Part shown: piece by piece, positions 6,332 through 12,279 of the stretch
How the letters are laid out: every line of letters starts with the position of its first letter
Numbering within the stretch: position 1 is the stretch's first letter
Sequence record: SRR22947727_354
Length of the DNA: 54,742 nucleotides
Direction: 5' to 3' (one strand)
Program-made: the position numbers and the translations under genes
Notes under the pieces: model-generated
Told to the model about the DNA's origin: nothing
The model's database searches: none
The model's input: only the letters and a program-made list of their open reading frames with translations

Positions 6332-8227
6332 TTAAGAGCCACTATAGAACCAATCATAGATTTGTTGAGCATATTTTTTCGAAATTCCCTCAACCGCTTC
6401 TAAATCGCTAAGCCCAGCGGCAGAAACCGCGCGCGCCGAGCCAAAATGCGCCAAAAGTGCCTTTTTGCGTTTTGGCCCAATGCCCGGAACCGCGTCTAAC
6501 GGATTGGTGAATTCGGTCTTGGTTCGTTTGGCGCGATGCGTGCCGATGGCATAGCGATGTGATTCGTCACGAAGCCGTTGCAGAAAATGCATTGCTGCGC
6601 TGTCGGGTGCAAGGGTAAAGCTGGCGCGGCCACGGATATGAAATTGTTCGCGTCCGGCATGCCGGTCAGGCCCTTTTGAAATGGCAACAACGTTTAGATC
6701 AACAAGCCCAAGATCATCAAGTGCCTCATGCACGGCCGATAGCTGGCCAACGCCGCCATCAATCAACAGCAAATCAGGCCAATTGCCCGACTGCCGGTCG
6801 GCATCTTCTTTCAAGGCGCGTGAAAATCGCCGATGGATCACCTGCCGCATCATGGCAAAATCATCACCAATGGCCGTTGCAAATTTGCCTTCATCCTTGA
6901 TGTTAAAGCGGCGATAGGCGCCCTTTTCGAAACCTTCTGGTCCCGCAACAACCATGCCGCCAACCGCATGTTTGCCTTGAATATGCGAATTATCATAAAT
7001 TTCAATGCGCGTTGGTGGTTTACCCAGATCAAGCGCGGCTGCCAGTTCGCGCAAAAGACGGCGTTGTGATGATGCGTTGGCAAGATGGCGGGCAAGCGCT
7101 TCTTCGGCATTTTTAAGCGCCATTGTTGTGACTTTGCGCCGATTGCCGCGCATTGGACAGCTAAGCGTGACCTTATGGCCTGCATTACGGGTCAATGCCT
7201 CGCTTAACAGGCGGTGACCTTCGGGCATTTCGCTAAGCATGATTTTGGCAGGCGGTTCTTTATCTTCATAAAATTGGCCGATAAAGGCACCAATCACCTC
7301 ATGGGCTGGGGTATCAGCAAGATGCGTCAGAAAATAGGACCGGTTGCCATAATTTGATCCGCCACGGATAAAGAAAATCTGAATGCAGCTTCGCTCGCCA
7401 CTTCGCGCCGCAGCGATGATATCAGCATCACTGACAGTTGGTAGATTGATGTCTTGATTGGCCTGAATACCGGTCAAGGCGCGAATGCGGTTGCGCCAGA
7501 TCGCCGCCGTTTCAAATTCCAGCGTTTCAGCCGCCGCATGCATGCGGGCGGCATATTCACGCTGCACATTGGCGGATTCGCCATTTAGGAAACGGCGGGC
7601 TTGCGCCATTTGCTTGGCGTAATCTTCGCGGCTAACAAGCCCGACACAAGGCCCCGAACAACGTTTGATCTGATATTGCAAACAGGGGCGCGTGCGACTT
7701 GCAAACACATTGTCAGAACAGGTGCGAAGCATAAAGGCGCGGGCAAGGTCGGCCACGGTGCGGTTGACCGATCCGGCCGAGGCAAATGGTCCGAAATAGT
7801 CGCCTTTGCGGTTTTTCCGGCCACGATGTTTGGTCAATTGGCCAAATTCATGATCGTCGGTTAGCAGAATTTGCGGCAGACTTTTATCGTCACGAAGCAG
7901 GATATTATATCGTGGCTGCATTTTCTTGATCAGATTTGATTCAAGCAGCAGCGCTTCGATTTCGGATTTTGTGACAATGACTTCTAATTTTTGGGTTTCG
8001 CCAACCATGCGCATGATCCGGTTGGATAGGCGATTTGGCTGGGTGTAGTTTGTAACGCGGCGAACAAGATTGCGCGCCTTACCAACATAAAGCACCTCGC
8101 CAGCCGCATTTTGCATACGGTAAACCCCGGGCTGACTTGGCAAGGTCTTAAGCTCGGTTTTCAAATAGGCAATACCGCGTTTCAAATTTGGCGGCATGTT
8201 CTGTGCGTCTTCCACTTTATGTCTCAC
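6332..8227 (-). CDS. uvrC: Excinuclease ABC subunit C (alternative start ATG 8197)
   Basis: GIY-YIG region (PGVYRM...LYVGKA), RIEIYDNSH, LIDGG, C-terminal HhH (GIGPKR). Confidence 0.97.
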   Translation of the reverse strand: MRHKVEDAQNMPPNLKRGIAYLKTELKTLPSQPGVYRMQNAAGEVLYVGKARNLVRRVTNYTQPNRLSNRIMRMVGETQKLEVIVTKSEIEALLLESNLIKKMQPRYNILLRDDKSLPQILLTDDHEFGQLTKHRGRKNRKGDYFGPFASAGSVNRTVADLARAFMLRTCSDNVFASRTRPCLQYQIKRCSGPCVGLVSREDYAKQMAQARRFLNGESANVQREYAARMHAAAETLEFETAAIWRNRIRALTGIQANQDINLPTVSDADIIAAARSGERSCIQIFFIRGGSNYGNRSYFLTHLADTPAHEVIGAFIGQFYEDKEPPAKIMLSEMPEGHRLLSEALTRNAGHKVTLSCPMRGNRRKVTTMALKNAEEALARHLANASSQRRLLRELAAALDLGKPPTRIEIYDNSHIQGKHAVGGMVVAGPEGFEKGAYRRFNIKDEGKFATAIGDDFAMMRQVIHRRFSRALKEDADRQSGNWPDLLLIDGGVGQLSAVHEALDDLGLVDLNVVAISKGPDRHAGREQFHIRGRASFTLAPDSAAMHFLQRLRDESHRYAIGTHRAKRTKTEFTNPLDAVPGIGPKRKKALLAHFGSARAVSAAGLSDLEAVEGISKKYAQQIYDWFYSGS

Positions 8228-8524
8228 CTAATGGGGTTTGGCCGCGGTTCTGGCGTTGTTTGCTGGCTTATGATTGCCGAATTCTTGACGGCGGTTTGGT
8301 GCGCGTCCCAACACGAATAGCAGTATAAAAAATTTCCCAAGCAAAGTCATTGCCGCAGTCGGAAATGTGACGATTTTCAAATCATGCCAATGATCCTCGA
8401 CCTCGATTCATTAGTGACCGATCGATGATTTGCGCCGGAATACAAGGATATGGTTGCTGCCTTGCGGCGCAAATGCGGAATTTGCGAATCAGCTAGATTT
8501 CATCTTCGGAAAAGGTTGAAATTG

Positions 8525-8559
8525 TTTTCCCCGATTGCTGTGGATAAACCTGTGGAAAA
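8525..8559. promoter_or_regulatory. Cluster of three DnaA boxes (DARS-like core)
   Basis: TTTTCCCCG (8525-8533, 2 mismatches to TTWTNCACA), 5 bp, TGTGGATAA (8539-8547, perfect, reverse), 3 bp, TGTGGAAAA (8551-8559, fits reverse TTWTNCACA). Confidence 0.75.
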
Positions 8560-8609
8560 ACCCCTAAATTTTTTTACGGCGTACTGTTTTTCTACGAAAA
8601 ATTACCCTT

Positions 8610-8660
8610 TGCCTAAAAAATAGGCATAAAATTAAAATTAAATTAATACAGATAGTTAAC
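8610..8660. promoter_or_regulatory. Palindrome TGCCTA-AAAAA-TAGGCA (Fis-like) followed by an AT-rich tract with an IHF-like site
   Basis: Perfect 6-bp inverted repeat at 8610-8626; ATACAGATAGTTA (8646-8658) has 2 mismatches to WATCARNNNNTTR and an upstream A/T tract. Confidence 0.5.
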
Positions 8661-8835
8661 ATATTTCAAGGGCAAAAAGACGTTCAATCGGCGTAAATTC
8701 TAAAGCCAGCTAACCGAATCAAGGCATTTTTGCAGAACTTGTGCAAAACCACTGGCGATTAGCCGCTGTTTTACAGTGATTTTTGCAATTGGCGCAAAGC
8801 GGTGTGACACCTTGGTTCTTTGGCTTTTATCAGCT

Positions 8836-10965
8836 TTACCGCCGCCGTCCACGCTTTTTAATTGGCGCGCCGGGGGTGCCAGCAGGAAACCCATGCCTTT
8901 CGGCGATGGCGGATGGAACCCCGGGTTCAAACAAACCAAGCTGGGTGGCTTCCATGCGGCGAATTTCATCGCGCAATCGTGCCGCTTCCTCAAATTCAAG
9001 ATTGGCCGCAGCGGCTTTCATATTGGTTTCAAGATCAGCAAGCACGGTTTTGAAATTGCTGCCGATCAGATCGCCTGATTTGGCACCCGCTTGCGGCGTT
9101 AGATGGTCACCACGTTCATAAACCGAATCCAGAACATCAGCGATGTCTTTGCGAACCGATTCAGGCGTAATGCCATGGGCTTTGTTATAGGCTGTTTGGC
9201 GCTCGCGCCGCCGGTTGGTTTCATCCAGCGCATATTGCATTGAATCGGTCACGCGGTCGCCGTAAAGGATAACACGGCCATCAAGATTTCGCGCGGCGCG
9301 CCCGATGGTCTGGATAAGTGACGTTCGCGACCGAAGATAGCCTTCCTTATCAGCGTCCAGAATACCGACAAGCGAACATTCGGGGATATCAAGCCCCTCA
9401 CGAAGCAGGTTAATGCCGATCAGCACATCAAATACGCCAAGGCGCAGATCGCGCATGATTTCGATCCGTTCAAGCGTATCAATGTCTGAATGTAGGTAGC
9501 GAACGCGCAATCCTGACTCATACATATATTCGGACAAGGCTTCGGCCATCTTTTTGGTCAGGGTCGTAATCAGCGCACGCTGACCCTTGGCGGCAACGTC
9601 ACGGCATTCGGCAATGATATCATCAACCTGATTGACCGTTGGCCGAACAATACAATCTGGATCAATCAATCCTGTTGGCCGCACCACCTGTTCACTAAAG
9701 ACACCGCCGGTTCGCTCTAGCTCCCATTTGCCCGGGGTGGCCGAAACAAAAATGGTTTGTGGCCTGAATCCTTCCCATTCTTCGAATTTCAAAGGCCGGT
9801 TATCAAGGCATGATGGCAACCTAAAGCCATAATTTGACAAGGTTGATTTGCGCGCAAAATCGCCCTTATACATCGCGCCAAGCTGGGGAACGGTGACATG
9901 GCTTTCATCAATGATCAAAAGTGCATTTTCTGGCAGATATTCAAACAGCGTTGGCGGTGGTTCGCCCGGCCCACGACCAGAAAGATAGCGCGAATAATTT
10001 TCAATTCCGGCACAAGCGCCCGTCGCCTCAATCATCTCAACATCAAATTGCGTGCGTTGTTCGATACGCTGGGCTTCGAGAAGCTGGTTATTGGCGGTGA
10101 ATTCGGCAATGCGGCTTTTGAGTTCCTGTTTGATCTGCTTGCAGGCCTGCTGCAAGGTTGGCCGCGGCGTCACATAATGCGAATTGGCGAAAATTGTGAT
10201 GCTGTCCAGTTTCGCATTTTTCGAACCAGTTAGCGGGTCAAATTCAAAAATGGCTTCGATCTCTTCGCCAAAAAGCGAAATGCGCCAGGCGCTATCTTCA
10301 AGATGCGCCGGAAATAATTCAACCGAGTCACCGCGAACTCGAAATGCGCCACGCACAAAATTTGTATCATTGCGGCGATATTGAAGCTCGGTCAGCTGGC
10401 GCAGCAAATCTTGTCGTGAGACCGTTTCACCAGCACTCAATTTCATCGTCATGCTGAAATAGGTTTCAACCGAACCAATGCCATAGATACATGATACCGA
10501 CGCGACAATGATAACATCGTCACGTTCAAGAAGGGCGCGGGTTGCCGAATGGCGCATCCGGTCAATCTGTTCATTGATTGACGATTCTTTTTCGATATAG
10601 GTATCGGATCTCGGCACATAGGCTTCGGGCTGGTAATAATCATAATAGGAAACGAAATATTCGACAGCATTATTGGGGAATAACGACTTCATCTCGCCAT
10701 AGAGCTGGGCGGCCAATGTTTTGTTTGGCGCTAGAATCAGCGTTGGCCGTTTGATCTGCTGGATGACATGCGCGGCCGTAAAGGTTTTGCCTGATCCTGT
10801 CACCCCAAGCAGAACCTGATCGCGTTCACCCGTTTGAATGCCTTCGATCAATTCGGCAATCGCAGTTGGCTGATCACCAGCCGGTTTAAATTCTGAGGTT
10901 AGGTCAAAATTTGCCGGGCCGCTTGATCGGGTGATGATCAAATTGTCGTTACTGGTTTCGTTCAT
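8836..10965 (-). CDS. uvrB: Excinuclease ABC subunit B
   Basis: [24 protein letters not shown] beta-hairpin, DESH, C-terminal UVR domain; ATG at 10965 chosen. Confidence 0.97.
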
Positions 10966-11076
10966 GCCCCTAAGATAGGCATGTTCGCCCAAAGAAGAAA
11001 GGGGGCGCGGCGAAAAGCACTTGTCCTAAACCACAAAGCACCCCATAAATTTCAAAGGGAAAAGGAGACCGGATCA

Positions 11077-12279
11077 ATGGGCCTTATTTCGGACAGGCTA
11101 AACCGCATCGCGCCATCACCAACCGTGTCGATTACCGACATGGCATTGAATATGAAAGCTGCAGGCCGCAAGGTAATTGGGCTTGCTGCTGGTGAGCCTG
11201 ATTTTGATACGCCGCAGCATATCAAAGATGCTGCGAATGCGGCGATGAAAGCAGGCAAAACAAAATATACGCAAGTTGACGGTATCCCCGAATTGAAGCA
11301 AGCGATCTGCCGCAAATTTGCGCGTGAAAACAACGTTACCTTTACAGCGGATATGATTACGGTAAGCACCGGTGGCAAGCAGGTTTTGTTTAACGCGCTA
11401 ATGGCCAGTCTGAACCCAAGCGATGAAGTAATTATTCCAACACCTTACTGGGTTAGCTTTGCCGGCATTGTCGAAATTTGCGAGGCAAAACCGGTCTTTG
11501 TAAGGGGAAGCGGTGCCAATCCCATGAAGATTAGCGCCGAAGATCTGGAAGCGGCCATCACGCCAAATAGCAAATGGCTTATCCTGAACAGCCCGTCAAA
11601 CCCGGGCGGGGTTGGCTATGATGCGGATGATTTGATGGCGTTTGCCGCGGTCATGCGTCGCCACCCGCAATTGCATTTGATCAGTGACGATATCTATGAA
11701 CATCTGGTTTATGACGATTTCAAATTTGTGACCATGGCAACGATTGCGCCCGATCTGCAAGACCGTATTCTAACCGTCAATGGCGTGTCAAAATCCTATT
11801 GCATGACTGGCTGGCGTATTGGCTATGGCAGTGGGCCGGTGCCATTGATCAAGGCAATGGCAAAGGTGCAATCGCAATCAACATCAAGTCCAAATTCAAT
11901 GGCACAATATGCGGCGATTGCCGCACTGGACGGGCCGTTGGATTTCATGGCTGAAAACCGCGCTGCCTTTGCCCGTCGTCGCCAGCTTGTTTGTGAAGCG
12001 CTGAACAAAATTGACGGGATTGATTGCCCGCTTCCCGATGGGGCTTTTTATGTCTATCCCTCGATTGCCAAATTGATTGGGAAAAAGCGGCCTGATGGTA
12101 AAATTATCGAAAGCGATAGCGATTTTGTCAGCTATCTTCTTGAGGCGGGTGAAGTGGCGGTGGTGCCGGGAGTTGCGTTTGGTCTGTCGCCCTATTTCCG
12201 AATCTCATATGCCGCGGCGGATGATGTTTTGGCCGATGCGATGCAAAGAATTGCGAAAGTAACCGCCAGCCTGTCGTGA
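11077..12279 (+). CDS. Aspartate aminotransferase (class I PLP-dependent)
   Basis: AGGAG RBS and ATG 11077; GEPDFDTP, NSPSNP, DDIYE, GVSKSYCMTGWRIG. Confidence 0.92.
   Translation: MGLISDRLNRIAPSPTVSITDMALNMKAAGRKVIGLAAGEPDFDTPQHIKDAANAAMKAGKTKYTQVDGIPELKQAICRKFARENNVTFTADMITVSTGGKQVLFNALMASLNPSDEVIIPTPYWVSFAGIVEICEAKPVFVRGSGANPMKISAEDLEAAITPNSKWLILNSPSNPGGVGYDADDLMAFAAVMRRHPQLHLISDDIYEHLVYDDFKFVTMATIAPDLQDRILTVNGVSKSYCMTGWRIGYGSGPVPLIKAMAKVQSQSTSSPNSMAQYAAIAALDGPLDFMAENRAAFARRRQLVCEALNKIDGIDCPLPDGAFYVYPSIAKLIGKKRPDGKIIESDSDFVSYLLEAGEVAVVPGVAFGLSPYFRISYAAADDVLADAMQRIAKVTASLS

Follow-up and report, generated by a model that had tools for sequence, protein, structure and literature searches.

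The DnaA-reactivating sequences (DARS) of Escherichia coli, DARS1 in the bioD-uvrB spacer and DARS2 in the rppH-mutH spacer, are the described systems closest to the element considered here, which lies between uvrC and uvrB in a 54,742-nucleotide stretch of DNA, SRR22947727_354, analysed at its full length and hereafter called the window. In E. coli K-12, the DARS1 core reads TTATCCACT-attcc-TGTGGATAA-cca-TGTGTATTA and the DARS2 core TTATTCACC-ttttc-TGTGGATAG-agt-TGTGAAGAA. As set out in part of Sugiyama 2019 (PMC6868365), boxes I and II of DARS are opposite in orientation and 5 bp apart, box II being a full consensus; the DnaA protomers on these two boxes release ADP via a head-to-head contact needing Gln208, and DnaA on box III itself releases none. 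Passages of Kasho 2025 (PMC11724364) describe box III as essential for DARS function and propose that Fis, which binds beside box V, is delivered to the core DnaA by a loop that integration host factor (IHF) makes. Reading DARS2 in K-12, we found IHF-type sites at +59 and +75 past the core (spanning +59 to +87) and a perfect DnaA box at +177; the former agree with the IHF sites IBS1-2, placed 3 bp apart in what Kasho 2014 says of them. Going by portions of three reports (PMC4245941, PMC5742627, PMC6090056), DARS are conserved only in E. coli and related gamma- and betaproteobacteria.

Window positions 8484-8749 may hold a DARS2-like DnaA-reactivating element, a self-contained DnaA-IHF module that would be the alphaproteobacterial counterpart of DARS2, a reading to which we assign a probability of about 0.5. 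We favour it because the core is identical to that of both DARS in orientation and in both spacer lengths, because this spacing is under selection, because the further parts follow a DARS2-like geometry, because the module is autonomous of its neighbour gene, and because oriC lies far away. In addition, it is favoured because an Hda-like gene and IHF are at hand: an Hda-like gene and IHF alpha are present both in G035, a genome from the same genus that is complete in one contig (2,592,803 bp), and in G001, the nearest genome, which carries the same spacer at 99% identity. A DARS-like architecture had been put forward by an original prediction drawn from the letters of the window, and the computational checks which it named all came out in its favour, at the level of architecture. 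The spacers of 5 and 3 bp that it gave for DARS1 are correct, as read in E. coli K-12, and the DARS2 core has the same.

Our full-text literature searches found no DnaA-reactivating DNA element in Alphaproteobacteria, including Caulobacter, and the words DARS and datA are absent from a review of Caulobacter replication control. Conserved boxes in DARS layout beside uvrC thus suggest that many alphaproteobacteria may own an undescribed replication-control element. The window provides a sharply defined candidate of 225 bp, with four predicted DnaA boxes, a putative IHF site, and a probable NtrC site, which makes ADP-DnaA recycling outside the enterics, and the route by which nutrient signals reach initiation, directly testable.

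Layout of the core and of the further parts

The core consists of the following parts, all read in the window:

8525-8533, + strand: DnaA box I, TTTTCCCCG, weak, opposed to boxes II and III
8534-8538: spacer ATTGC between boxes I and II, 5 bp
8539-8547, - strand: DnaA box II, TGTGGATAA (+ strand letters), perfect consensus, 5 bp from box I
8548-8550: spacer ACC between boxes II and III, 3 bp
8551-8559, - strand: DnaA box III, TGTGGAAAA, 3 bp from box II and in the same orientation

Single DnaA boxes are not enriched in the window (six matches at <=1 mismatch versus 8.84 expected), so that the evidence beyond chance lies in their arrangement and in its conservation. Measured against a 35-bp three-box pattern, TTWTNCACA-N5-TGTGGATAA-N3-TGTGNAWAA, DARS1 has two mismatches, DARS2 three, and datA six, the latter all at the position of box I. 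As read in E. coli, datA comprises a double box 3 bp apart, a perfect IHF site ~57 bp further on, and more DnaA boxes ~150 bp away. It therefore resembles the module as non-coding DNA in which a double DnaA box, an IHF site, and further boxes extend over ~200 bp, but it is without the inverted box at 5 bp, and its known effect, in the parts of the literature that treat it, is the opposite of that of DARS, namely hydrolysis of the ATP on DnaA. The inverted box I at 5 bp thus sets the module apart from datA. The same box is what makes the core diagnostic: double boxes 2-3 bp apart are presented in a section of Stringer 2024 (PMC11317965) as a general high-affinity DnaA target, occurring also at ordinary E. 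coli promoters, so that the II-III pair alone is not diagnostic.

The core is part of a ~225-bp module with a fixed geometry, in which it is followed, after 50 bp, by a palindrome, an IHF-like site, and a fourth DnaA box at +180:

8486-8490: conserved GAATC (within GCGAATC, 8484-8490), ~35 bp outside box I, fits GANTC
8610-8626: palindrome TGCCTAAAAAATAGGCA, TGCCTA-N5-TAGGCA, 17 bp, 50 bp after box III, candidate NtrC site
8646-8658, + strand: IHF-like site ATACAGATAGTTA, offset +86, weak (2-3 mismatches)
8663-8670: conserved ATTTCAAG, invariant in the genus
8740-8748, - strand: DnaA box IV TGTGCAAAA, followed by a C at 8749, 180 bp after box III

This geometry was followed in 32 loci oriented by their core, which are the window, 11 loci of its family, and 20 from other families, as well as in an alignment of 16 spacers of the genus, from which a duplicate locus (L002) and a truncated one (L008) were left out. 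Throughout the module loci, the letters between the anchor sites vary freely while the length is kept. The consensus of box I over the 32 sequences is tT.TCC.Cg, with TTATCCACG, TTATCCACT or TTATCCCCG among relatives; box II is identical in 15 of the 16 genus spacers, the remaining one (L010) having TGGGGATAA. The gap between box III and the palindrome, which in its exact form would be expected 0.12 times in the window, measures 49-51 bp in 29 of the 32 loci. Box IV, which the original prediction overlooked, is invariant, and the block TTGTG(C/T)AAAAC at 8738-8749 is invariant or nearly so in the genus; 22 of the 32 loci have a perfect TGTGNANAAC beginning at +178 to +182, and four more have it at +168 to +170. 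At the offset of the IHF-like site (+86), relatives have AATCAATATTTTA (no mismatch) or AATCATATAGTTA (one mismatch). This forward site is found in the window's family and one other genus, and most orders have instead a reversed IHF consensus starting at +73 to +75, such as TAAGCCATTGATT, which reaches <=1 mismatch in ten loci. The window's site is centred on 8652, 93 bp away from where the core ends and 92 bp away from the middle of box IV, and a U-turn at this point would lay box IV beside the core.

The CGAATC outside box I is invariant in the 16 genus spacers, and it is found in other genera of the family as well, often twice. GANTC is the methylation motif of CcrM, and such sites are common in alphaproteobacterial oriC; replication-dependent hemimethylation could thus time the element. 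In many families (L197, L198, L207, L214, and others), the 5-bp spacer between boxes I and II itself reads GAATC or GATTC. A further short motif, (T)TCAAG, stands ~15-30 bp past the IHF-like site in many families (+105 to +115), TCAAG being kept in the consensus of the 32 sequences.

DARS2 has in common with the module the inverted box I, the 5-bp and 3-bp spacers, and, at the level of sequence, IHF sites ~60-90 bp and a DnaA box ~177-182 bp past the core. Likewise, both carry a site, in the module a candidate one, for a dimeric protein with a helix-turn-helix of the Fis/NtrC type, and both lie far from oriC. They differ in their genomic neighbours, and the palindrome of the module resembles an NtrC box. 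DARS1, in turn, has a core layout identical to that of the module, and both adjoin an excision-repair gene. In some relatives even its boxes recur nearly letter for letter (TTATCCACG-attcc-TGTGGATAA, with TGTGTATTA as box III in one genus). However, DARS1 needs no accessory proteins, whereas the module carries IHF-like, palindrome, and distal-box parts, and DARS1 lies upstream of uvrB with box III towards the gene, whereas the module turns box I towards uvrC.

Recurrence of the module

A DNA search of the family retrieved the spacer from 17 of the 20 genomes of the genus, and the conserved part of the match starts exactly at the boxes. Within the genus alignment, boxes I-III and their spacer lengths, the palindrome, ATTTCAAG, and the fourth box are invariant or nearly so. 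In other genera of the family, all eight loci likewise have these parts upstream of uvrC, with uvrB not adjoining (four further family loci without a uvrC match were dropped). Scanning genomes with the three-box pattern at <=3 mismatches, and with the same pattern back-to-front as control, we found it in 40 of 96 genomes of the family (control 0), in 114 of 401 genomes and 88 of 295 genera drawn evenly from the class (control 0; 113 of 400 without genome G128), and in 218 of 401 sampled genomes of the phylum (one control hit). The DARS core layout thereby has a much wider distribution than has been reported. In some beta- and gammaproteobacterial families, a genome holds 2-7 copies of the core. 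When the DARS1 core was compared with plasmids by BLAST, all records retrieved were enterobacterial and had the same DNA.

Since that pattern prescribes the spacers, the same 401 class genomes, G128 included, were also searched with ATCCMC-N{4,8}-TGTGGATAA-N{1,5}-TGTG at 0 mismatches, which allows spacers of 3-7 and 1-5 bp. The 99 rows obtained represent 89 distinct places by hand tally, and 78 of these have spacers of 5 and 3 bp, two can be read as 5+1 or 5+3, and nine have other spacings (control 0). Judged by these counts, the 5+3 spacing is under selection. Conservation of the box spacing in relatives, on which the original prediction had staked its case, is hence borne out by the genus alignment, the other genera, the pattern scans, and the free-spacing search alike. 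Among large families that the pattern missed, the uvrC upstream regions of five representatives yielded one degenerate module and one single perfect box.

The module lies mostly upstream of uvrC and recurs there in many alphaproteobacterial families. In 18 of 30 class-level loci the start of uvrC is on the side of box I, 33-423 bp distant, with the gene transcribed away from the core, and uvrC is on this side in 9 of 12 further alphaproteobacterial loci; the distance is often just 33-170 bp. Outside Alphaproteobacteria, none of 17 loci (L237-L253) adjoins uvrB or uvrC. The proposed location beside uvr genes thus holds for uvrC, but uvrB is a neighbour only in this genus. In three loci with other neighbour genes (L202, L210, and L215), palindrome-like and box-IV-like sites nonetheless follow at the offsets of the module, box IV being perfect in L215 only.

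The palindrome and its candidate binder

The palindrome had been called Fis-like, and we take its core, GCCTAAAAAATAGGC, to fit the 15-bp Fis consensus. No Fis-sized HTH_8 gene was found in G035, where HTH_8 occurs in frames of 486, 466, 362, and 223 amino acids and in two weak ones of 94. Instead, the same motif at glnB and at dusB-ntrBC makes an NtrC site more likely. NtrC is a nitrogen response regulator with a Fis-like DNA-binding domain, and the dusB-fis and dusB-ntrBC operons are evolutionary counterparts. G035 has two exact copies of the 17-mer where 0.15 would be expected: one belongs to the module, and the other is 205 bp upstream of glnB-glnA (392,485; L053). A copy with one mismatch stands 56 bp upstream of dusB (296,361; L048), with which dusB-ntrB-(ntrC) begins. 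In the genus, 12 genomes were compared, and the exact 15-bp core is found inside the module in all 12, 199-212 bp upstream of glnB in six of ten assessable genomes, and ~90-94 bp upstream of the dusB match in three of 11. Overall, this core is no commoner in these genomes than its back-to-front control, so that the signal is where it lies and not its frequency. Five genomes from four other families were compared as well: three of them have a copy with <=1 mismatch no more than ~110 bp upstream of dusB, and one has such a copy 226 bp upstream of glnB.

Sections of a study of Caulobacter (10.1101/2023.06.06.543975) report NtrC as an activator of glnBA and a repressor of its own operon that also binds upstream of hdaA, and describe its motif from chromatin immunoprecipitation sequencing as resembling the E. 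coli motifs of both Fis and NtrC. Since glnB-glnA and dusB-ntrBC have the palindrome upstream as well, it is probably an NtrC-binding site, with NtrC the best candidate binder, and by its placement it is a candidate NtrC operator motif of this lineage, though NtrX may bind it instead. A pattern search of the NtrC-like and NtrX-like frames of G035 found the Walker A motif and no GAFTGA motif. The sites at glnBA and dusB-ntrBC (nifR3 = dusB) share with the module the core GCCTA-N5-TAGGC and an A+T-rich centre; in contrast to them, the palindrome of the module stands among DnaA boxes. By eye, no sigma-54-type -24/-12 element was seen near the palindrome or box IV.

Mechanism, rival readings, and genomic position

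How could such a module act? The binding of DnaA, IHF, and NtrC, the DNA loop, and the exchange of nucleotide are all inferred. In our model, DnaA would bind the perfect box II first and then recruit further protomers, one to box III, head-to-tail over the 3-bp spacer, and another to the inverted box I, head-to-head over the 5-bp spacer. IHF would bend the DNA at ~+80 to +92, bringing the DnaA on box IV (+180) back beside the core, and a dimeric regulator, probably NtrC, would sit on the palindrome 50 bp from the core, in the place that Fis has in DARS2. The module may also tune the transcription of uvrC, much as DARS1 overlaps the uvrB promoter in E. coli. A bolder version, possible though doubtful, is that of an alphaproteobacterial DARS2-type element in which NtrC plays the part of Fis, so that nitrogen status would gate the re-charging of DnaA with ATP and, through it, the initiation of replication. 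If this were true, the gammaproteobacterial pair of Fis and DARS2 would have descended from, or arisen in parallel to, an older pair of NtrC and DARS.

Several observations weigh against a DARS2-like element. Box I is weak in the window, the window's own IHF-like site has 2-3 mismatches, and the II-III pair, 3 bp apart, fits the general DnaA target set out in part of PMC11317965. Box IV is oriented opposite to box V of DARS2, and the accessory site stands between core and IHF site, whereas that of DARS2 is beyond the IHF site; the activation by Fis at FBS2-3 that is typical of DARS2 has no match here, a different palindrome being present instead. Aligned with its E. coli homolog, the DnaA of G035 has Tyr at Gln208 and Met at Leu290 (Phe239, Lys243, and Arg285 are kept). 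The uvrC upstream regions of the representatives of three of the five large families missed by the pattern hold no module, and a steady place upstream of one gene would also fit a promoter role. Finally, the distance between module and hemE, taken as a stand-in for oriC, amounts to 0.16, 0.32, and 0.78 of the half-chromosome in three complete genomes, and thus varies, unlike the relative distance from oriC in E. coli, which has been shown to be conserved among strains.

The promoter role leads to the reading that the module is solely a regulatory region of uvrC, where DnaA, IHF, and the binder of the palindrome would repress or activate the gene and tie excision repair to the replication cycle, leaving the nucleotide state of DnaA unaffected. 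We consider this rather unlikely. It would account for the core lying on the start side of uvrC in 18 of 30 and 9 of 12 loci, often at short range, and it has a precedent in E. coli, where DnaA represses uvrB and the same spacer holds DARS1, as stated in part of PMC6015884; moreover, where DnaA targets E. coli promoters, repair-gene promoters among them, it does so at double boxes 2-3 bp apart, according to the relevant section of PMC11317965, and such a double box is present in the window. RNA-library contigs also run from uvrC into the spacer (7600-8750 and 7600-8594), which is weak evidence because DNA carry-over is possible and neither strand nor ends are given. However, the internal spacing of the module is fixed within ~1-2 bp over 225 bp whereas the module stands anywhere between 33 and 423 bp from the start of uvrC, the candidate uvrC promoter of the window is ~175 bp from box I, and the palindrome-like and box-IV-like sites follow the core beside unrelated genes too. 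Nor do an inverted box I at 5 bp and a distal box at +180 have a stated role at known DnaA-regulated promoters. Less probable still is a datA-like element that titrates DnaA or stimulates hydrolysis of DnaA-bound ATP, and so would put a brake on initiation: the overall plan of double box (3 bp), IHF site, and further boxes is shared with datA, but datA is without the inverted box at 5 bp (six mismatches), which is conserved in the module, and four boxes offer little titration capacity.

That the conserved blocks are promoter, hairpin, and terminator of a small RNA or structured leader is very improbable. A consensus scan does find, on the + strand, a promoter-like TTGCCT-18-TAAAAT (8609-8638) and a hairpin resembling a terminator (8764-8778), the palindrome might itself form a hairpin of 6 bp, and the RNA-library contigs (again with possible DNA carry-over) cover the spacer. 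But Rfam gave no family at E <= 1 on either strand of 8000-9100, RNAalifold on the 32 module sequences predicts two inverted repeats only, with covariation ~0 on either strand, neither the -10-like hexamer nor the terminator-like hairpin is kept past close relatives, and the sequence between the anchor sites is free to vary with its length kept. The least probable reading of all is a chromosomal origin, or a second or relict one, as might be suggested by the cluster of DnaA boxes, the IHF-like site, and the A+T-rich tract at 8627-8660. This tract is not kept in G+C-rich families, and GC skew is positive on both sides of the spacer, without the switch in the window that the original prediction had named as a sign of oriC. 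In G035, furthermore, cumulative GC skew has its minimum at ~1.50 Mb and its maximum at ~0.22 Mb, and the module, at ~730.3 kb, is 761 kb from oriC, ~60% (0.60) down one replichore. The minimum falls in the spacer that separates hemE from a PpsR-like gene, beyond which come maf and coaE, an arrangement that we take to be the canonical context of an alphaproteobacterial origin; three DnaA boxes at <=1 mismatch, two of them perfect, lie in this spacer, and dnaA is at 1.566 Mb. DnaA boxes and IHF sites are thus common to the module and to the alphaproteobacterial oriC at hemE, but in G035 these are separate loci. G035 has another cluster at 2,200,232-2,200,425 (L144:232-425), with four DnaA boxes (<=1 mismatch) in one orientation, two of them perfect and 67 bp apart, which adjoins small open reading frames (ORFs) without family match and a FliL gene, and is neither oriC nor the uvrC module.

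The spacer itself is 608 bp of non-coding DNA (8228-8835). Its flanks and its remaining features are:

6332-8227, - strand: uvrC (TIGR00194, E 2.3e-163)
8322-8350, - strand: candidate sigma-70 promoter of uvrC, ATGACT-17-TATACT, from a consensus scan that is no evidence of function, ~175 bp from box I
8632-8646: TTAA-N7-TTAA (CtrA-like), not conserved
8717-8729: second IHF-like site AATCAAGGCATTT, kept in closest relatives only
8836-10992, - strand: uvrB (NF003673, 1057 bits), 3' end 87 bp past box IV

As both genes are on the minus strand, the spacer follows uvrB and precedes uvrC. The block of the candidate uvrC promoter is kept in part of the genus. The three boxes, the palindrome, the TTAA-N7-TTAA, and both IHF-like sites are indeed read in the window with the letters and positions originally given. 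Of the two IHF-like sites, that at 8646-8658 stands at a conserved offset, but that at 8717-8729 is confined to the closest relatives; since neither it nor the CtrA-like motif is conserved across the 16 genus spacers, both are probably due to chance or lineage-specific. The longest uvrB ORF (8836-10992) has a TTG start 27 codons ahead of that of the family model, and it overlaps the start of a divergent aspartate aminotransferase ORF (10981-12279); given this overlap and the 27-codon extension, the true start of uvrB is probably further in.

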